From a phage: a stretch of 64,000 nt of DNA. Both the position numbers and the translations under genes were made by a program. Positions 32,514 to 61,700 of the stretch are shown piece after piece (the first letter of the stretch is position 1; each line of letters begins with the position of its first letter). The notes under the pieces were generated by a model. It had not been told where the DNA came from. It worked only from the letters and a program-made list of their open reading frames with translations, and searched no databases. Location of the stretch: the sequence record PZ379075.1. One strand, 5' to 3'.

Positions 32514-32693
32514 AATGGGTAAATTTGATTATCGTTCATATGATGAAAACTCCTCCAACCGTGAATCTCGTAAAGACCAAAAGATTAAACATCAACTGTT
32601 TGATCAGAGAACTGGTCGTATTCCTCGTGAGGGTAAGGTGAGTCATCGTGTAAACAAACGAGTTTGGGAAGAAGCTGATTATGGCGAAGTCTG
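32514..32693 (+). CDS. possible small ORF (59 aa)
   Basis: ATG-initiated, basic; overlaps the start of the HNH gene. Confidence 0.3.
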
Positions 32694-33082
32694 AGAAGAC
32701 TCGCTGTAGTGGAATGTGGACTGAAGCTCGTTACAACTCTTTCATCAAGTCAGGGATTCGTTCTCTGACTAGAAAGTGGAAGCCTATGTTCGATGCACTA
32801 GCAGACGCCAAGACAGAGCAGAAGATTAATCCAAAGACAGGAAGACTGGCAATGCACTTTAAGTGTGCCATGTGTGGTTCTGACCACCCTGTAAAGGATA
32901 TGGCTATTGACCACATAGAGCCTATAGTTCCCTTAGATCATGAAGCAACTTGGGATGAAATCATCTCTCGTGCTCTGTGTGAGAAAGAAGGTTTTCAGGT
33001 TCTGTGTAAAGACCCTTGTCATAAGATTAAAACAAAAGAAGAGAATGATGCAAGAAAACAATTCAAAAAAGGAAATGAGTGA
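32681..33082 (+). CDS. HNH endonuclease
   Basis: CAMCG...AIDHIEPI...LCKDPCH: Cys4 zinc site plus HNH catalytic motif. Confidence 0.6.
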   Translation: MAKSEKTRCSGMWTEARYNSFIKSGIRSLTRKWKPMFDALADAKTEQKINPKTGRLAMHFKCAMCGSDHPVKDMAIDHIEPIVPLDHEATWDEIISRALCEKEGFQVLCKDPCHKIKTKEENDARKQFKKGNE

Positions 33083-50449: not shown

Positions 50450-53011
50450 TTACTTAACTGGCATCTCTACACGAACTGAGATAAAAGCATCACTTGGAAT
50501 ATCAATAGGATCTCCATCAGAAAAACCTTCTATCTCATTTCTAGCAAAAACTGGAGAGGTCGGGTGAGTTCTGTGATAGGTTTTAACTAAAATAGAACCA
50601 TCCTCTTTAACCTTATAATCTAACCAAATTCTAGGCTGCTTGTTGCGGTCTACAGGGATTTCAAACCCACCATCCACCCCACCCCAACTAGCGTCTACGT
50701 TTAAACCAAGGCAACCAGTAATCAAATATTCACCAATACCTTGCCGAATGACACTAACCCCCTCAGACTCATCATTCGTTTCATATCGACCGTCAGAGTA
50801 AACTTTAACTATCGGAGATGCCGCTTTGATGAATCCATTTACATCAACAGTGGTATTTTTGTCTGTGAGACACTGAACATATTTTGTTGTCCCATCTGCA
50901 ACTTTTATCGCGTAAATTACACGACCATACCCTGAGGCCGCACCACCAACCCCTGCGTATGACACAGCGTGAGCAATCCAGAAGTTAGTATCCTCTGGCT
51001 GCATATACCAATAGCAGTTAAACATGTCTACAGTAAACATGCCATTCCCGGCGACGTGCTGGACTCGAGCACCAGTACCACCTGTACCTGTATTTGCTGG
51101 AGTGTTGCTCAATGCTCCAATATTTCTCAGAGCACCATCAGCATCTGTTGCCCCGGTTCCCCCTCTTCCAACTGACAAAGCTACATCACCAGCTAATCCA
51201 GATATGGTACGGTAACACCCCCATCCGTTATTATCGACAAACATGTAAGTTTCTTTATTCGGAGAAAAGATTTTAGTCTCCACAGAACTTTGTTCTACTC
51301 TGTCTACTCCTAAATTAGACTTAGCACCCGCAGCAGTGCTAGCACCTGTACCGCCATTTGCCACTGGAATATTATCTAGTGTAGAAACAGAACCAAGTCC
51401 TAAATTAGATCTGGCGTCACTGGCATTCTTCGCCCCTGTACCGCCATTTGCCACTGGAATATTATCTAGTGTAGAAACAGAACCAAGTCCTAAATTAGAT
51501 CTGGCGTCACTGGCATTCTTCGCCCCTGTTCCACCCTGAGTAACAGACAGTGCTGTCGTAAGTCCAGTCATAGATGTTATATCAGAGTTTGCACCAGCAG
51601 CAGCAGCACCTAATATAGACCTGGAGATATTGACGTTACCTGTAGTTTCATCAGGAGCTTGGTTGTTTACAGTGACTACATAAGGAACCTGAGACTGAAC
51701 CCCACCTTTGTAATTAGCATCTTTACTAGAATCAGGGGAGCGAATAGCCTCACCACCTGTCCAATCTGGAAGACGTATATTAATGAAGTTAGTGGCATCC
51801 GCATCAGTTACACCATCAGTGAGTTTACCCCAAGAGAAATACTGACGAGCACCAGCTTGCCACTCTGTTTCAGAGACCACAGGAAGCTGACCACTGACTA
51901 GAGATGGGCCTAAGTCTAGAGCAGACTCTTTTGACACCAAACGACCATCGGCAGGAAGAACCCCCGGATATGAGATATTCTTCGTTGGGTCGTAAGGAAA
52001 CATTACCATCTCGCCAAGATACAGAGATGGGTTTCCTGTTGGAATGGTAATGTCAATGTTACCACTAGAGTCTGGAGAACGGGAGTTAACGGTAAGGATT
52101 CTACCTTCAGTTTTAACAGGAGTTAGTGTTTTGTTAGCAGCAACCGTATAGAATTCATACTTAGTAGCTTCCCAAACTAAGACCTGCTCTCCAACTTGAC
52201 GGTACTGAGCATCAGCATCAGCTTCTGCTTTTGATTGGTATGTCTTGGTAGTTTTGTCAAACTTGTCATTAATCTCTTGACGGCTGTATTGAGCAACGTT
52301 CAGAACATTCCCTAAACCTACTGTCTCTTTGTTAAACGTTAGAGCAACCTCTCCATCAAGAGCTGGACCCCCATTAACAGAAACAGAACGAACAACAGAT
52401 GGGATTAAGTTAGCAATGTTCTCTAGAGTGGTTTTGTGGACAGTATTGTCATCTTTGTCAACATAGAAACCTAAGTCACCTAACTCTGGAACACCGGTAG
52501 GTGCTGTATCTAAATCCTTAACAGAACCATCCTTTCCGGGATCACCTTCTGGAATACCTAAAGAGATTACACCAGTGGTCGGATTAAAAGAACCAGTAGC
52601 CGGAGTTCCCGGAGGAAGTGTAGTTACGTCAACGGACATTCCTAACAGAATATCAAGCTGATTCTGAACTTCAATAAGTTTCTGATTAATGAGAGCAACA
52701 GCATTGTTAGCATCAGAGACTGCTGCGTTAGTTTGAGCAATCAAGCTCATCAGACGAGCATCTTGATCTATAAAATCCTGCTTAAGATCTTCGATATCCT
52801 GCTTCATCAGAATACCTTGTTGATACAGACGTTCTACTTCAGCAATCAAATCATCAATCGTACCAAACTTAGACTCCGCTAGCAGTGCCCAATATTTGGA
52901 GTCAGCTGCGTATTCTGCTGCTTGCTTATAAGCTCCGATAGAGCCTTCAGTAGCACCAAACTGCCCAACGTTATTCACTGCATCAGGTGCTTGGTTATTA
53001 TAAACGATCAT
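50450..53011 (-). CDS. tail fiber protein with phage-fiber repeats
   Basis: 853 aa; N-terminal coiled coil; repeated GGTGAKNASDARSNLGLGS units typical of phage tail fiber repeat motifs. Confidence 0.7.
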   Translation of the reverse strand: MIVYNNQAPDAVNNVGQFGATEGSIGAYKQAAEYAADSKYWALLAESKFGTIDDLIAEVERLYQQGILMKQDIEDLKQDFIDQDARLMSLIAQTNAAVSDANNAVALINQKLIEVQNQLDILLGMSVDVTTLPPGTPATGSFNPTTGVISLGIPEGDPGKDGSVKDLDTAPTGVPELGDLGFYVDKDDNTVHKTTLENIANLIPSVVRSVSVNGGPALDGEVALTFNKETVGLGNVLNVAQYSRQEINDKFDKTTKTYQSKAEADADAQYRQVGEQVLVWEATKYEFYTVAANKTLTPVKTEGRILTVNSRSPDSSGNIDITIPTGNPSLYLGEMVMFPYDPTKNISYPGVLPADGRLVSKESALDLGPSLVSGQLPVVSETEWQAGARQYFSWGKLTDGVTDADATNFINIRLPDWTGGEAIRSPDSSKDANYKGGVQSQVPYVVTVNNQAPDETTGNVNISRSILGAAAAGANSDITSMTGLTTALSVTQGGTGAKNASDARSNLGLGSVSTLDNIPVANGGTGAKNASDARSNLGLGSVSTLDNIPVANGGTGASTAAGAKSNLGVDRVEQSSVETKIFSPNKETYMFVDNNGWGCYRTISGLAGDVALSVGRGGTGATDADGALRNIGALSNTPANTGTGGTGARVQHVAGNGMFTVDMFNCYWYMQPEDTNFWIAHAVSYAGVGGAASGYGRVIYAIKVADGTTKYVQCLTDKNTTVDVNGFIKAASPIVKVYSDGRYETNDESEGVSVIRQGIGEYLITGCLGLNVDASWGGVDGGFEIPVDRNKQPRIWLDYKVKEDGSILVKTYHRTHPTSPVFARNEIEGFSDGDPIDIPSDAFISVRVEMPVK
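51345..51524 (-). repeat. perfect 90-bp tandem duplication (2 copies) inside the tail fiber gene
   Basis: Identical 90-nt unit at 51345-51434 and 51435-51524, encoding the 30-aa repeat GAKNASDARSNLGLGSVSTLDNIPVANGGT twice; a third, diverged copy follows. Confidence 0.85.
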
Positions 53012-53020
53012 ATTATCTCC

Positions 53021-53770
53021 TTATACACGAGAAGTACGAATACCATAAATATCAGGCAGGCTGCTCTGAAGTCGAGTCATGTTATTCGGAATTGCGATAG
53101 GTGAACCTGAGTACTCTTGTTTCTTATTCTGCTCTACCATTTCATCAAGGATAGCTTTTCCTAATGCTGACCATTTCTGAACACCATTATCATCTTGAAC
53201 AAACAAGCAAGCATGACGTAGTGTGAAGTACAGAAGAAGTTCTGGTGCGATAGTAAGAATAGCACTAGTGTCTGTATCTTCGTGGAATTCCGGTGGATCT
53301 GCATAATAACTGAGAATCACTGAGTTTTCTGCTGGAATCAAAGGGCTTCCATCATCAGGATAAACAGGAGTATCTGCTTCAATACTAGGGTAGAAAATGA
53401 AACGACTCCCGAAACGAGCAAAGTTAACAGGTTGGTTATTCCAGTGAGATGGATTAACTGTTCCATGCTGTCTACGATAGCTAATCTCTTCAGGAGATGT
53501 TACTTGGAAGATTGCACCATCTTTGGCTCTCATCATCCATTGAGCTTCTAAGTAATCAGGAGGAATATAAGCCACTCCATCTTTGATATCTAAATACACT
53601 TCTTTTTCCAGAGGAGGGATTCGTAAGTTACGATAAATCTCTTTCTCTGCAAAGTTAATAAAGTTTGGAATTTGATTAACAAATTCATCATCGTCCCTAT
53701 CTGCCCAGAGGGCCACGGCCTTCTTTAGCCACCCATAGGTATTGATGGGGTATTGAACTTCAGGCAACAT
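53021..53770 (-). CDS. hypothetical structural protein
   Basis: Start moved to the internal ATG at 53770, preceded by GGAGGT; the track start 53797 lacks an RBS. Confidence 0.5.
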   Translation of the reverse strand: MLPEVQYPINTYGWLKKAVALWADRDDDEFVNQIPNFINFAEKEIYRNLRIPPLEKEVYLDIKDGVAYIPPDYLEAQWMMRAKDGAIFQVTSPEEISYRRQHGTVNPSHWNNQPVNFARFGSRFIFYPSIEADTPVYPDDGSPLIPAENSVILSYYADPPEFHEDTDTSAILTIAPELLLYFTLRHACLFVQDDNGVQKWSALGKAILDEMVEQNKKQEYSGSPIAIPNNMTRLQSSLPDIYGIRTSRV

Positions 53771-54272
53771 AGGATACCTCCTTCCAGTTTGTGCCATTGA
53801 TTATTAGGCTTATTGTGCTTGAAGAGACTCCAAACTTCCTAGCTAAAGCTCTAGCTCCGAACTGTCTGTCCCTCGGTTTATAGTTCTCTAAACAGAAAAG
53901 AACTTGTTCTTTAGTAAGTTTGGAATTAGGATTATCCTCAAGATTTCTTGGTGTTGAGAGTTTTGTTTCATAAGCATGTACACAGTTTTCTTGTTGAGTA
54001 CACCACTCTAGATTCTCAATCCTGTTATCATCTTTTATTCCATTCTTATGGTTGACATAATCCTTCCCTTCTACCTTAGGAAGAAAAAGTTCAGCTATGA
54101 CCCTATGCTCTAAATATGATTTCTTTTTAAAAGTCACTTTACGATAACCTCTGTCGCCAATACACCCGGCACGTTGTCCTTTCTGCTTATTAAAGATGTT
54201 ACTCATAGACCAGAAAAGATGCCCTGTATTTGGATCATAGGTAAAAGCTTCTCTGAAATCAGGCATTGCCAT
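53760..54272 (-). CDS. HNH homing endonuclease
   Basis: YVNHKNGIKDDNRIENLEWCTQQENCVHA (HNH_3-type motif) plus C-terminal HTH-like region; AGGAGG RBS; free-standing between structural genes. Confidence 0.65.
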   Translation of the reverse strand: MAMPDFREAFTYDPNTGHLFWSMSNIFNKQKGQRAGCIGDRGYRKVTFKKKSYLEHRVIAELFLPKVEGKDYVNHKNGIKDDNRIENLEWCTQQENCVHAYETKLSTPRNLEDNPNSKLTKEQVLFCLENYKPRDRQFGARALARKFGVSSSTISLIINGTNWKEVSYVA

Positions 54273-54340
54273 AGTGTGTCCTCCTAGTTATGTATAGACA
54301 AAGAGAATACATTACATTTCTCCTTATAAGGGTCTTAAAC

Positions 54341-54365
54341 GAGAAAACCCCGCCCGAAGGCAGGG
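54341..54365 (-). terminator. intrinsic terminator on the - strand (UUCG loop)
   Basis: - strand RNA ccctgcc-UUCG-ggcgggg followed by UUUUCUCGUUU; directly after the stop of the Ig-like gene. Confidence 0.55.
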
Positions 54366-54374
54366 TAAGGGTTA

Positions 54375-55400
54375 TTACGGCTTAGGTGTTACATTGGTTA
54401 AATTGAAAGTAGAAGTAACAGAGGTTTTAATTTTGTGAGTAGCTTTAATAGTTACAGCACCACTGGCTGTGTCAGCCAAGGTCAGTAACCCAGAAGTATT
54501 CACTGTACCAGCTTCTGTCGGAGTGACTACAAAGTTGTAATCAGATGCCGCAGAGTTAGTTACTGTAAACATATCAGCAAACGCGAGTGTATCACCGCCC
54601 ACTTTGTCCGCAACGGTAGCTTTAGCCACGATGGTTGGAAGAGGGGTTACGCCATTAATATTAGCAGTTGCAGTAACAGAGGTTACCGTCTTGTGAGTAG
54701 CTTTAACAGTTACGTTACCGCTAGCCGTACCAGCTAAAGTGAGCTGACCAGCAGCATTCACTGTACCAGCAGCAGATGGAGTTACTACAAAATTATAGTC
54801 ACTAGCAGCTGAGCGTTGAACAGTAAACATATCTGTAAAAGCGACACTGTCTCCACCAGATTTTCCAGTAATAGCAGCTTTAGCTACAATAGTTGGAGGC
54901 TGAGGGTTGACAACAATATTAATCACTTTAGTGACAGAAGGTTTAGTAGAGGATTTAACTGTAAGAGTAGTGCTACCTGCTGCAACAGCAGTTACACGAC
55001 CAGCAGCTGTTACCGTAGCCTTAGTCTGATCTGCAATTTCCCAGGTAACACCTTGAGGTGCACCAGCAGGAGATACAGAAGCAGTCAGGTTGGTAGCATC
55101 TGGAACAGTTATGGTGAGAGTATCACCAGTTAGACCACCACCAGTTACAGCAATGGAAGCTGGGTCAGGGATTGGAGCTTTAATTTCCGAGATAACGGCA
55201 GTGCCTGATACACCTTTAAGAGTAGCAGTCACTGTAATATCAGCGGTTTGAGGCGAACCCGGAGCAGTGAACAGCCCAGAAACAGAAATAGCCCCACCAC
55301 CGGCTACTGACCAATCGAAGCCTGTAGTAGATGTGGAGCCATCGCTTAGTTCTGCTTCAGCTGTAAACTGTTGGGTAGCCCCGGTCAGCAGACTTGCCAC
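54375..55400 (-). CDS. Ig-like domain structural protein (putative capsid decoration or head fiber)
   Basis: 341 aa; two internal repeats of about 85 aa (PTIVAKA...DMFTV..SAASDYNFVVTP...VTVKATHK); directly downstream of the major capsid gene and followed by a terminator. Confidence 0.5.
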   Translation of the reverse strand: MASLLTGATQQFTAEAELSDGSTSTTGFDWSVAGGGAISVSGLFTAPGSPQTADITVTATLKGVSGTAVISEIKAPIPDPASIAVTGGGLTGDTLTITVPDATNLTASVSPAGAPQGVTWEIADQTKATVTAAGRVTAVAAGSTTLTVKSSTKPSVTKVINIVVNPQPPTIVAKAAITGKSGGDSVAFTDMFTVQRSAASDYNFVVTPSAAGTVNAAGQLTLAGTASGNVTVKATHKTVTSVTATANINGVTPLPTIVAKATVADKVGGDTLAFADMFTVTNSAASDYNFVVTPTEAGTVNTSGLLTLADTASGAVTIKATHKIKTSVTSTFNLTNVTPKP

Positions 55401-55432: not shown

Positions 55433-56491
55433 TTACGCCCCCGCCTTTCCCGCAGCGGTGAACAGTACACCAGAAGCATACGGGTTGCGGTGACGCAGAC
55501 CAACTTCCATTTCAATCATCCACTTCTCGTAAGAACCATCTTTTGCTAGTTCAGTACGTTTCGGAGCACGCAGAACCATCTGAGTCCAGTCAGCGCTACG
55601 GAAGAAGTAAACTGCATCGGTAGGCATCCAACGGTTAACGATGATTTTGTAGCTCTGGCCCAGCGGGTCAGTGATGCTATTAACTTCGTAGATGAACTGC
55701 TTGGTGTTCTCAAAGATACGCTTACGTGAACCCTGAGTATTTTCTTGCAGACCAGCGAAGATCTTAGCATGAGCCGGGTTAATCATGATGATATCTGCTT
55801 CAGAACCAGCGGTATACAGTTGCAGAGTCATATCAAAGATATCAGCTTCGTCGAAACCAATGTTAGTGGTCGGGTTAGAAGCATTCTGTGCAACTTTAAC
55901 AGTCACTGCACCAGTATCCGGGTCAGCAGGACCATTCTTGGTCTTGTCAACAACGCCACCAGCCAGACCACCGTGAGCACACAGGAACTGGAATGCACCA
56001 GTCTTACGAGCTGCATGGGTGTCATTCAGACCAACAACAGCAGGATCAGTTGCAGAGTTAGTCAGATACTGGTCAGCCAGAACGTCGGTACGAGCCTGAC
56101 CGGACAGAAGGATTTTCTCGAGGTCACGCTTGATCTCTTTACCTTTCTTCTCCAGCTGATACATCAGTTCACGACCACGACCGTAGTTAGCGGTGGTGTT
56201 AGCAGTATCAGAAACACGAACAACCTTACGCAGAATCTGAGTAACGTTAGATTTGATAACAGTCGGTTTCATTTCACCGTCTTCAGCACGAGAGCCTTCG
56301 ACGTGTGCGTTATTACCGTCAACGCTTGCCAGTGCATCGGTCTGCCAGCTAAAGATAGTCTGGTTGATAGACTCTTTACCGGTCATAGATACGAACGGGG
56401 TATCCTGAGGGGACAGAACAGAAATCCAGTTAGCAAAAGAAAGTTTTTTACCATTCTGGTCATACGATACAAATAAAGTTGGATTAGCCAT
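55433..56491 (-). CDS. major capsid protein
   Basis: 352 aa, positioned after the scaffold gene; composition and size typical of HK97-fold coat proteins. Confidence 0.65.
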   Translation of the reverse strand: MANPTLFVSYDQNGKKLSFANWISVLSPQDTPFVSMTGKESINQTIFSWQTDALASVDGNNAHVEGSRAEDGEMKPTVIKSNVTQILRKVVRVSDTANTTANYGRGRELMYQLEKKGKEIKRDLEKILLSGQARTDVLADQYLTNSATDPAVVGLNDTHAARKTGAFQFLCAHGGLAGGVVDKTKNGPADPDTGAVTVKVAQNASNPTTNIGFDEADIFDMTLQLYTAGSEADIIMINPAHAKIFAGLQENTQGSRKRIFENTKQFIYEVNSITDPLGQSYKIIVNRWMPTDAVYFFRSADWTQMVLRAPKRTELAKDGSYEKWMIEMEVGLRHRNPYASGVLFTAAGKAGA

Positions 56492-56531: not shown

Positions 56532-57608
56532 TTAATCTACGAGGAATTTGAATGCGTCTTCGTGACTAACGCGACCCTCTGCGAATGCCTTGGCAACCTT
56601 AGCGTTGTCGGGCTTATTGGAAGTGCGAGACTTTGCAGCATCAGACTTCACAACCTTGCGTGGAGCACCGGGACGTTTAATCTTAGCCATCACCTGTTGC
56701 TTACCTTTATCAAATTGGTATGCTTTATGGAGAGCTAGGAAAATAGACGGACGGTTTTCCTTCAATACTTCTTCTTCAGTAGCACCTAAGTCAATTGCGT
56801 ATTGCATTAAGTTTTGATATAAGTTTTCATCCCAATTTGGAATCTCGCGTTTCAGAATATTAACACATTCAATACTCTTGGCTTGGAAAGCTTCCTGCTC
56901 TTTAGCTGCTGCTTCCTGCTTAATACGGACCTGAGCCTGTTCAAGCTGTTGACGGCGAGCTGTGTACTTCTCTAGGAAACGTTTGTTTTCAACATATGCT
57001 TGAGGATCTTCTACTGCAAGCTTGTCCCAATCAAAACCGTTATAATCTTCAATTACTCGGTCTGCTTCTAAAGACGCTAGTTCTAATACATCCTTCAAAC
57101 CTACTACACGTTCCTCGAATGCTTCCATATGACGCTGAAGAGTTGATTCTCGTTCTGTCATATCAGCACCAGTAAGATAGCCATTAGAAAGTTCTTCAAT
57201 AGTCATCTCACGTCCATCAGGAAGGGTGATAACGGTTTCGTAGTCTACATCAAAGACTTCACCTTCACCGTCAGCAGAATCATCTTCATACTCTGCATCG
57301 CTTGAATCTTCTTCCTCTTGTTCTTCTGCTTCAGAGGATTCGTCTTCATCTTCTTCGACTTCGCCTTCCTCTTCACGATCTTCCCAACCATCTTCATCTT
57401 CGAACTTAAGCTCATCGCTTTCACCGAGAAGGTCGGTATCAAAGTCGAAATCGTCACCGTCTTTTTCCGGGAACTCATCGTCAATGTCCACTTCTGGTTC
57501 TTGTTCAGATTCTAATCGACCGAGTTCTTCTTTGAAAGAACCTTTCAGGTCATCCAGTTGGAGGAAAGATTTAAAATCGTTCGGGTCAATATAATTATCT
57601 TGTGGCAT
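56532..57608 (-). CDS. scaffolding protein
   Basis: 358 aa, extremely acidic N-terminal half (EEEGEVEEDEDESSEAEEQEEEDSSD) and helical C-terminal half; between portal and capsid. Confidence 0.6.
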   Translation of the reverse strand: MPQDNYIDPNDFKSFLQLDDLKGSFKEELGRLESEQEPEVDIDDEFPEKDGDDFDFDTDLLGESDELKFEDEDGWEDREEEGEVEEDEDESSEAEEQEEEDSSDAEYEDDSADGEGEVFDVDYETVITLPDGREMTIEELSNGYLTGADMTERESTLQRHMEAFEERVVGLKDVLELASLEADRVIEDYNGFDWDKLAVEDPQAYVENKRFLEKYTARRQQLEQAQVRIKQEAAAKEQEAFQAKSIECVNILKREIPNWDENLYQNLMQYAIDLGATEEEVLKENRPSIFLALHKAYQFDKGKQQVMAKIKRPGAPRKVVKSDAAKSRTSNKPDNAKVAKAFAEGRVSHEDAFKFLVD

Positions 57609-60158: not shown

Positions 60159-61700
60159 TTAGTAACTCTGATTCCATCTGCTTACGTTTGCCTCATACAG
60201 AGAAGCACTTCCGTAGCTAACGTCATGTTTAGAGCGACCACGATGTGTAACAGAGCACGCTGAATAGCGCATTGCATCCATTAAGTCATCATGTTCTTTA
60301 ATAATCTTACCAACCTTACGGTGATATCTAGCTTTCTCTTCGAATAGCTTAGCGTTAGCAGCTGTGTTAAAGATTTTAAAGCGTCCACTCATCATTCTTT
60401 CTCGGATATCTGTGATTCCGGGTTCTACAAAGAAGTTCTTTTTACCATCCATTCCAATTTTGTTGTAGAAGGTCTCACTCTGTACGTTAACTCCTGCATT
60501 CTTATAGAATTGAGCAACAGATGAACCACTACCTTTCTCAGTATTGTCCGCATCATGCGGTAGGATGACAGGAATCCACTGACCACGACCATTAATAGCT
60601 GGAGCATGATACACTGGAGTAAAGCCACCTTCTTTATATGAGTCGTAAACATAGATAGTATCCGTGTTTGCGTCGTAAGCTGTCCAAACAGCAGCAGTTG
60701 GGTGATCAATACCAATATCAATTGCACAGACACGTTTCCACGTATCAGGAATTTCGAATGGTTCACATTTAATTGTGTCATCCGATACATCATAAATCAA
60801 ACCACTTCCTAACAATGGCATACCTTTTGAACGCATCTCTAACTGCCACGCTGGAATACCTTCAGTCATATCTTTTATATCTTGGTCAGTGATGTGTCCA
60901 CCTAGGTCTGCATGAGCATCCCACCAAGAAGCATTCTGGAAATATAGAGAACCTGTGCTCTCATCCCCTTCACCTTTCATAAATTTATCTACCAGTTCAG
61001 TTAAACCGTTCTCTGGTGTAGCTGTAATTGTAACTAGACCTTTAGTTGTGAGTGTACGTGTGACGCACTGTGCGAATATAGCCATAGACTCGTATGGATC
61101 TTCTTCGTCTAACCAAATGTAGTCAACTGTTGCACCCATTAATGTGTGTTCACCCTGTTGGGTTGAACGGAATTCTAATGTACTTAAACCGTCAAACTCT
61201 CCTCTCTCATTTTGATGTTTGATTTGTACGATTTGAAGTTTGTTACCATCTCGTTCTATCGTATCAATGACGATAGCATCACGAGGAATGACACCTGTCC
61301 CTAATAAATTTGTATCCTTTCCGATAGGTGTACCAAACAATTCCTTTTGCAATACTTTCCTTGTGGAATCCCCTGTAATACCAACTGCCCATGCTAAGAT
61401 AGGTCTTTTAAATTTATATCCTGTCCACCAAGTTGGGTAGCGACCTGTGACATGACAAGCAAACTCGTATGCCTCGCTATAAGATTTACCAACACGGTTC
61501 GCTGCACACAAAAATCTAAAGCGATGCTTCAATCCTGCTGCATAAAATTTCTTTTGGAAGTCATACGCCTTGAAAGACAAAATCCTATTATACTTCCTCC
61601 ATTGGTCACGCTCTTTCAACATATTCAATAGTGCTTTCTTTTCGTCTACACTAAGATTGTTACCAGTTAGAGCTTCGTAAATTTGCTTATCTAATGACAT
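60159..61700 (-). CDS. terminase large subunit
   Basis: 513 aa; Walker A-like GKSYSEAYEFACH context in the N-terminal ATPase region and acidic nuclease-type C-terminal half; GGAGG RBS; adjacent to portal. Confidence 0.75.
   Translation of the reverse strand: MSLDKQIYEALTGNNLSVDEKKALLNMLKERDQWRKYNRILSFKAYDFQKKFYAAGLKHRFRFLCAANRVGKSYSEAYEFACHVTGRYPTWWTGYKFKRPILAWAVGITGDSTRKVLQKELFGTPIGKDTNLLGTGVIPRDAIVIDTIERDGNKLQIVQIKHQNERGEFDGLSTLEFRSTQQGEHTLMGATVDYIWLDEEDPYESMAIFAQCVTRTLTTKGLVTITATPENGLTELVDKFMKGEGDESTGSLYFQNASWWDAHADLGGHITDQDIKDMTEGIPAWQLEMRSKGMPLLGSGLIYDVSDDTIKCEPFEIPDTWKRVCAIDIGIDHPTAAVWTAYDANTDTIYVYDSYKEGGFTPVYHAPAINGRGQWIPVILPHDADNTEKGSGSSVAQFYKNAGVNVQSETFYNKIGMDGKKNFFVEPGITDIRERMMSGRFKIFNTAANAKLFEEKARYHRKVGKIIKEHDDLMDAMRYSACSVTHRGRSKHDVSYGSASLYEANVSRWNQSY

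Follow-up and report, generated by a model that had tools for sequence, protein, structure and literature searches.

What is a nuclease gene doing in the late operon of a coliphage, between the gene for a capsid decoration protein and that for the head-to-tail adaptor? The question is raised by an open reading frame (ORF) of 170 codons (53760-54272, minus strand, here the HNH gene) in phage sequence record PZ379075.1, analysed as a stretch of 64,000 nt that we call the window. The first-pass annotation of this DNA took the ORF for a mobile homing endonuclease with its own strong ribosome-binding site (RBS), inserted directly behind a terminator, and allowed that it, or a second HNH gene elsewhere in the window, might instead be associated with DNA packaging. 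Our comparison with related phages makes it very probable that the ORF is a free-standing, promoter-less, I-HmuI-like HNH_3 homing endonuclease gene (HEG) which has colonised the 5' end of the adaptor gene. The region around it has 80-95% nucleotide identity to phiEco32/SU10-like coliphages and is identical to no record, and by this similarity the phage belongs with the phiEco32/SU10-like coliphages of the Gordonclarkvirinae (Kuravirus, Suseptimavirus).

The HNH gene has an intact frame, and its product matches the HNH_3 Pfam profile with 49 bits (cut-off 24.8, E 4.5e-13) and PHROG 59, 'HNH endonuclease' (E 5e-39). The intron-encoded enzyme I-HmuI (PDB 1U3E), at about 21% identity, is the sole PDB sequence match with E <0.001 (E 2e-4), and it is also the top fold match found by Foldseek (1u3e, 166 columns, E 3.4e-6, probability 1.00; the next, I-PpoI, has E 0.1) for an AlphaFold (AF2) model built on 55 homologues, with a predicted local distance difference test score (pLDDT) of 88.5. 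In this model the predicted layout is an N-terminal β domain, an HNH core, linker helices and a C-terminal helix-turn-helix (HTH); HTH profiles match residues 135-162 below threshold, and NUMOD4 is also present in many homologues. Residues H75, N83, N87 and N96 are invariant across the 55 homologues, and H75, N87 and N96 align with the residues of the same number in I-HmuI, where they are the general-base His, a structural Asn and the metal-binding Asn. Position 74, Asp in I-HmuI, is Asn in the window protein, a substitution that we considered as the mark of an inactive enzyme and ruled out, because Asn is the usual residue here, found in at least 90% of the 55 homologues. The ORF is thus predicted to encode an HNH_3 nuclease of I-HmuI type whose active site is intact. 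In the copy of phage MLP3, which may be decaying or inactive, the otherwise invariant Asn87 is replaced by Lys (ENLEW to EKLEW). A six-frame profile search and tblastn of the window recovered one copy only of each HNH type.

The junctions of the gene, compared in ten filled and eight empty alleles, place it inside the adaptor gene. HNH-positive phages carry a 499-bp segment, absent from the empty alleles, which sits after adaptor codon 5, its boundaries being ambiguous inside the direct repeat TGCCTGA (ATGCCTGAY in the alleles called B and C below). Empty alleles read ATGGCAATGCC(A/T)GA(T/C/A)GTTCAATA, and their order is terminator, TAATGTAT(A/T) motif, AGGAGG, 7 nt, and ATG GCA ATG CC(A/T) GA(T/C/A) GTT CAA TAC CCC; in phiEco32, SU10 and EK010 the empty site is …AGGAGGACAACCTATGGCAATGCCAGATGTTCAATACCCC…, and the ancestral adaptor start is ATGGCAATGCCWGAT. 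In the window, behind a spacer and RBS that are the same as in the empty alleles, the captured start ATGGCAATGCCTGAT runs directly into the HNH-specific TTCAGAGAA…, so that the ancestral ATG and first five codons of the adaptor (MAMPD) now form the N-terminus of the nuclease. The adaptor N-terminus is MAMP(D/E)VQYP in HNH-negative phages and M(L/M)P(D/E)VQ in HNH-positive ones, and MAMP is kept even in relatives with just 51-54% identity. The first-pass annotation was thus right to put an HNH_3 ORF between the Ig-like (immunoglobulin-like) decoration gene and further structural genes, but the position is not simply intergenic, since it lies within the first codons of the adaptor.

The signals in front of the gene have the same origin. 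The strong RBS that had been credited to the nuclease does exist, as AGGAGG 7 nt upstream of its ATG, yet the motif also occupies this position in phiEco32, SU10, EK010, TH42, Bas87/88 and SGF2, which lack the HNH gene, and is therefore the ancestral RBS of the adaptor, not one borne by the element; the promoter motif, like the ATG and the first five codons, is likewise the adaptor's. This motif, TAATGTAT, belongs to the late promoters of the phage sigma factor (gp36-type) and is the sole promoter-like signal found upstream of the HNH gene, there being no sigma-70-like promoter in 53600-54600; in SU10 a gp36-sigma late promoter, tAATGTAt, lies between CDS10 (Ig) and CDS11 (adaptor) (PMC4281155). 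The terminator, first placed at 54341-54365, was recovered in our scan with only slightly wider limits (Table 1) as a hairpin, ACCCTGCCTTCGGGCGGGGT, followed by a T-tract. It is annotated in SU10 and is present in the empty alleles too.

At its other end the HNH gene carries a replacement for what it has taken. Its 3' end reads …GGAAGGAGGTATCCT ATG TTG CCT GA|A GTT CAA TAC CCC, from which the adaptor restarts as MLPEVQYP, one residue shorter than the MAMPD… form and overlapping the HNH stop by 11 nt. The new adaptor RBS within the HNH coding end is GGAGG or AGGAG in every filled allele, metagenomic ones included. A mechanically called adaptor ORF begins at 53797 (MAQTGRRYPMLPEV…), its extra nine codons lying within the HNH gene in another frame; we place the start instead at ATG 53770, because of the starts used in relatives and the GGAGG at 53777-53781. 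One metagenomic allele (L021) retains more of the initiation region, AAGGAGTTAAAT ATG AGC ATG CCA GAA. In another (L020 2440-3000, metagenome contig LEMO22-1 scaffold_148) the promoter, RBS and ATGGCA of the adaptor are held by an 83-aa ORF with its own terminator, after which come a second TAATGTATA motif and RBS and an HNH allele that starts MTQFRD, not MAMPD, an arrangement that suggests nested insertion at this hot spot. The MLP3 record bears the note 'Phage intron', and a group I intron-encoded gene was accordingly considered. This reading was rejected: 52800-55000 contains no Rfam intron or other significant RNA family, and the junctions are those of ORF fusion and restart, not of splicing.

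Among about 100 phiEco32-like records in the phage collection (those encoding an adaptor at least 78% identical, duplicate RefSeq/GenBank records being counted), 12 have the HNH gene at this site and about 88 have the site empty and uninterrupted. The filled records are those of XT32, XT18, IME267 (two records), MLP3, TH38, TH06, PAS59, 1-6af, 1-6bf, FH3 and the diverged Bas86; phages without the gene include phiEco32, SU10, Bas87/88, EK010, TH42/43, SGF2 and myPSH1131. All eight IMG/VR relatives are also empty at the site, which adds little to the estimate of frequency, while four metagenomic loci hold three alleles with 70-79% protein identity, all at the same site. The gene is therefore far from universal at this position: it is confined to a minority of relatives whose flanks are otherwise conserved and, wherever present, it is always at the adaptor site. 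This synteny, which the first-pass annotation had proposed as a check, bears out its view of a mobile insertion.

So does the disagreement between the history of the gene and that of its surroundings. Three HNH alleles can be distinguished, A in IME267, MLP3, PAS59, XT32, TH06 and TH38, B in 1-6af and FH3 (about 85% identical to A), and C in Bas86 (about 70% identical to A). The PAS59 gene is 99-100% identical to that of IME267 while the adaptors of these phages are 77% identical. With PAS59 and Bas86 it is the other way round, the adaptors being 96.6% and the HNH genes 69-71% identical. The history of the HNH gene is thus uncoupled from that of its flanks. PAS59 was also compared with HNH-less EK010 over 6.5 kb, in which scaffold and capsid genes are 96-100%, the adaptor 99-100% and the tail fibre mostly 88-100% identical. 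The exception is a patch of about 1.2 kb comprising a short Ig allele, the spacer and the HNH gene, which is 99-100% IME267/MLP3-like and has its right breakpoint no more than about 10 nt from the end of the element. Such a pattern would be expected if the element had homed into an empty site of EK010 type and the DNA to its left had been co-converted.

The HNH gene of the window is itself identical to no record, and is a recombinant of two alleles. Upstream of about position 54061 its 5' part is of allele B (1-6af/FH3-like) at 32 of 32 informative sites; the 3' part has one site matching neither allele and is then A-type (IME267-like) at 46 of 48, continuing so into the adaptor gene. The 170-aa frame is kept in all ten GenBank alleles, and allele A differs from allele B with a ratio of non-synonymous to synonymous change (dN/dS) of 0.11, against 0.045 in the adaptor, values which indicate that the HNH gene is under purifying selection.

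On the homing model, the enzyme would act in mixed infections, nicking or cutting HNH-less genomes at or near the uninterrupted ATGGCAATGCCWGAYGTTCAATACCCC. Repair of the break from an HNH-positive genome would then copy the HNH gene into the recipient, often with the neighbouring Ig-like gene. HNH-positive genomes would be immune because the insertion splits and recodes ATGGCAATGCCWGAYGTTCAATACCCC, and simple deletion of the element would be lethal, aiding its retention, because the only translation start of the adaptor now lies inside it. Several observations weigh against this model. The mosaics of PAS59/EK010 and of the window could stem from ordinary homologous recombination in a variable region, and the Ig-like neighbour is indeed hypervariable even in HNH-less phages. 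The nuclease is placed on the strong late promoter and RBS of a structural gene, unlike the tightly limited expression of the HEGs of phage T4. Enzymes of the I-HmuI type are nickases, able to cut their own genome too, and for this reason the proposed immunity is not assured. Finally, the N87K substitution of MLP3 suggests that some copies may be decaying.

The strongest competitor to homing, although we consider it unlikely, is an old nuclease that has been domesticated or retained, no longer homes, and is spread by ordinary recombination of the variable Ig/adaptor region; it might be kept by the embedded start signals of the adaptor or by an advantage in competition during co-infection. Precise loss would be difficult with the start signals of the adaptor (RBS and ATG) embedded in the 3' end of the HNH gene, the adjoining Ig-like gene is a general recombination hot spot, and three alleles diverged by up to 30% at a single site imply long residence, all of which speaks for such a history. 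However, the low dN/dS and the invariance of the catalytic residues point to a functional nuclease, the gene is missing from 88% of relatives, and the right breakpoint in PAS59, so close to the end of the element, is that expected of homing into an empty site.

A much less probable alternative is that raised by the first-pass annotation for either HNH gene, namely a packaging-associated HNH protein aiding the terminase in the manner of HK97 gp74. HNH proteins are described as widespread in phage packaging machines (Kala et al. 2014, as cited in PMC9965538), and the first HNH gene does lie in the late structural operon. It is missing, however, from about 88% of close relatives, which package their DNA normally, it lies not next to the large terminase gene but about 6 kb away, and its product has the modular architecture of the sequence-specific I-HmuI.

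In favour of such a role for the second HNH gene are its universal conservation and the label 'terminase small subunit' that it bears in several GenBank records of relatives. The first-pass annotation was correct in reporting an ORF here, but as an HNH protein its product is only weakly recognisable: it matches PHROG 3106, 'HNH endonuclease', at 5.9e-40 and scores 15.1 bits against Pfam HNH, under the cut-off of 21.4, although several homologues carry a precomputed PF01844 match. Five residues (C62, C65, H78, C109, H114) do not vary across 31 relatives, at least 90% of which also have D77 and C113. A PDB sequence search gave nothing meaningful, and the model (pLDDT 93.7) has as its best folds the Cap5 HNH domain and Gme HNH, neither significant (E 0.3-0.4). 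The gene was found in 186 phage records, among them virtually every phiEco32-like phage as well as more distant podophages of Vibrio, Pseudomonas, Aeromonas and Salinivibrio, and is therefore a fixed core gene, not a mobile element. It ends the plus-strand middle/replication module, shortly after the gene for a 5'-3' exonuclease, and some 27 kb separate it from the large terminase gene, which speaks against a part in packaging. The comparative paper on Kuravirus, noting how numerous HNH domains are, explains and rejects the small-terminase label (PMC9965538).

Least credible of all is a decaying pseudogene or annotation artefact without function, as might be argued from MLP3 N87K and from the many relatives that do not need the gene, given that ten GenBank alleles, with nucleotide sequences diverged by up to 30%, all keep an intact frame of equal length, that synonymous greatly exceeds non-synonymous change, and that the structure model is confident.

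Returning to the homing endonuclease, the core HNH gene provides an unexpected parallel to its mode of insertion. The 'HNH endonuclease' of phiEco32 is neither of the two window genes but another ORF, phi32_31, whose 150-aa product combines HNH_3 with an AP2-like module and is 30% identical to the first HNH protein of the window. It is inserted just upstream of the core HNH gene (phiEco32, L031 2056-2540) and starts MAKSEKTRCS, which are the first ten codons of the uninterrupted core gene of the window; behind it the core gene of phiEco32 makes a new start as MKANKTRCSNQW…, overlapping phi32_31 by 11 nt. The arrangement in TH34 (L033 401-900) is the same, and the element was found in these two phages only. 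Between the empty core gene of the window (32675-32725) and the filled one of phiEco32 the first 36 nt are 58% identical and the next 200 nt 97-98%. The first 36 nt or so, recoded in phiEco32, are an insertion site that is unoccupied in the window, whose adaptor site by contrast is filled.

This leads us to propose, tentatively, that the HNH_3 HEGs of this phage group may all colonise essential genes in one distinct manner, by 'start-capture'. In this layout the insertion lies a few codons into the target, the ORF of the element is fused to the RBS, ATG and first 5-10 codons of the target, and a recoded copy of the target initiation region at the 3' end restarts the target; at the adaptor site the upstream late-promoter motif also falls to the element. 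The translation-initiation region of the target would be the recognition site, its recoded copy would confer immunity, and the arrangement would make the element undeletable. That two independent sites are occupied in this way by two HEG subfamilies (the adaptor by HNH-HTH, the core HNH gene by the HNH-AP2 of phi32_31) suggests a rule and not an accident.

The positions of these features, and of the late genes around them, are collected in Table 1. The surroundings of the HNH gene are a local mosaic, with capsid genes of phiEco32 type, an Ig-like gene of EK010/TH43/Bas88 type, a spacer of TH42 type, an adaptor of phiEco32 type and a tail fibre of SGF2 type. The Ig-like gene varies from 327 to 1581 nt across relatives and is mosaic itself; the copy in the window encodes 341 aa with two internal repeats of about 90 aa (…TIVAKA…SAASDYNFVVTP…). 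In the tail-fibre protein a unit of about 30 aa (GGTGAKNASDARSNLGLGSVSTLDNIPVAN) is perfectly duplicated in tandem. The N-terminal part of this protein is 97-100% SGF2-like, while the adjoining adaptor is equally close, at about 95%, to those of phiEco32, SU10, SGF2 and IME267.

Table 1. Coordinates of the two HNH genes, the insertion and its signals, and the surrounding late genes in the window.
Feature	Position	Strand	Basis or remark
HNH ORF, 170 aa	53760-54272	-	between Ig-like gene and adaptor gene
499-bp segment of HNH-positive phages, absent from empty alleles	53759-54257	-	alignment of window and IME267 with phiEco32 and Bas88
Captured adaptor start ATGGCAATGCCTGAT	54258-54272	-	ancestral ATG and five codons (MAMPD), now HNH N-terminus
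RBS AGGAGG, 7 nt before HNH ATG	54280-54285	-	ancestral adaptor RBS, now serving HNH gene
Late-promoter motif TAATGTAT (phage sigma factor, gp36-type) in Ig/adaptor spacer	54307-54314	-	motif position
Intrinsic terminator after Ig-like gene, hairpin ACCCTGCCTTCGGGCGGGGT and T-tract	54337-54366	-	terminator scan
New adaptor RBS GGAGG inside HNH 3' coding end	53777-53781	-	6 nt before ATG 53770
Recombination breakpoint in HNH gene	54058-54061	-	about codon 71, between N-terminal domain and HNH core
Large terminase gene	60159-61700	-	late operon; portal next
Scaffold gene	56532-57608	-	late operon, after portal
SU10-type major capsid protein gene	55433-56491	-	late operon
Ig-like (Big_2) decoration gene	54375-55400	-	Pfam; followed by terminator and HNH ORF
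Head-to-tail adaptor gene (SU10_adaptor), start MLPEVQYP	53021-53770	-	Pfam SU10_adaptor 4.5e-29; PHROG 2941
Tail-fibre gene	50450-53011	-	late operon, after adaptor
Core gene, putative HNH superfamily (CxxC...DH...CxxCH), 133 aa	32681-33082	+	fixed in relatives

These results have consequences for how such genomes are annotated and used. The HNH gene would be described as a selfish mobile element, neither a packaging nor a structural component, and the adaptor start would be moved from 53797 to 53770. EK010 and PAS59 form a natural near-isogenic pair of HNH-negative and HNH-positive phages, and together with the defined empty site they offer a system for the study of homing and co-conversion in a coliphage group relevant to therapy. 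The homing endonuclease may carry the neighbouring capsid-decoration allele along with it. For engineering, deletion of the HNH gene without a rebuilt adaptor RBS and ATG would probably kill the phage.

Our literature search for this locus found no paper describing it, although in GenBank the names HNH or homing endonuclease are already attached, as labels only, to orthologues in Kuravirus and Suseptimavirus. Those of IME267 (gp011), MLP3 (UEN68515), XT18 and Bas86 (Bas86_0007) are at the same site and have 170 aa, with 70-93% nucleotide and 84-97% protein identity. Of characterised enzymes the closest is I-HmuI of Bacillus phage SPO1, with which the modelled protein has in common the N-terminal β domain, the ββα-metal core of the HNH motif, the linker helices and the C-terminal HTH. 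I-HmuI, however, is an HNH nicking enzyme encoded in a group I intron, whereas the window gene is free-standing and without intron RNA. In Skunavirus phages the genes for I-HmuI-like HNH proteins differ in number and location (PMC12724721), and HEGs in general are found beside essential structural genes or inside them, where boundaries of genetic exchange lie (PMC10448857).

In its organisation the element recalls the free-standing HEGs of T4 (SegF, SegG and MobE), which spread by 'intronless homing' with marker exclusion and co-conversion. They are promoter-less cassettes which rely on an upstream phage promoter, contain signals for the essential gene behind them, overlap the ORFs on either side and co-convert markers in their flanks (PMC2988022). 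The travel of the Ig-like gene with the HNH gene in PAS59 resembles such co-conversion. The T4 elements, several of which are of the GIY-YIG type, nevertheless lie between genes and replace only a promoter, while that of the window is placed within the opening codons of its neighbour, is fused to its start and replaces its RBS and ATG as well. Within the phage group itself the same logic of insertion is seen at another gene in phi32_31, absent from the window, with an AP2-like module in place of the HTH. The gene is in this sense a homing endonuclease of known type, and what is less familiar is its insertion in the first codons of a neighbour with translational fusion to it, an arrangement that occurs twice in this group of phages.

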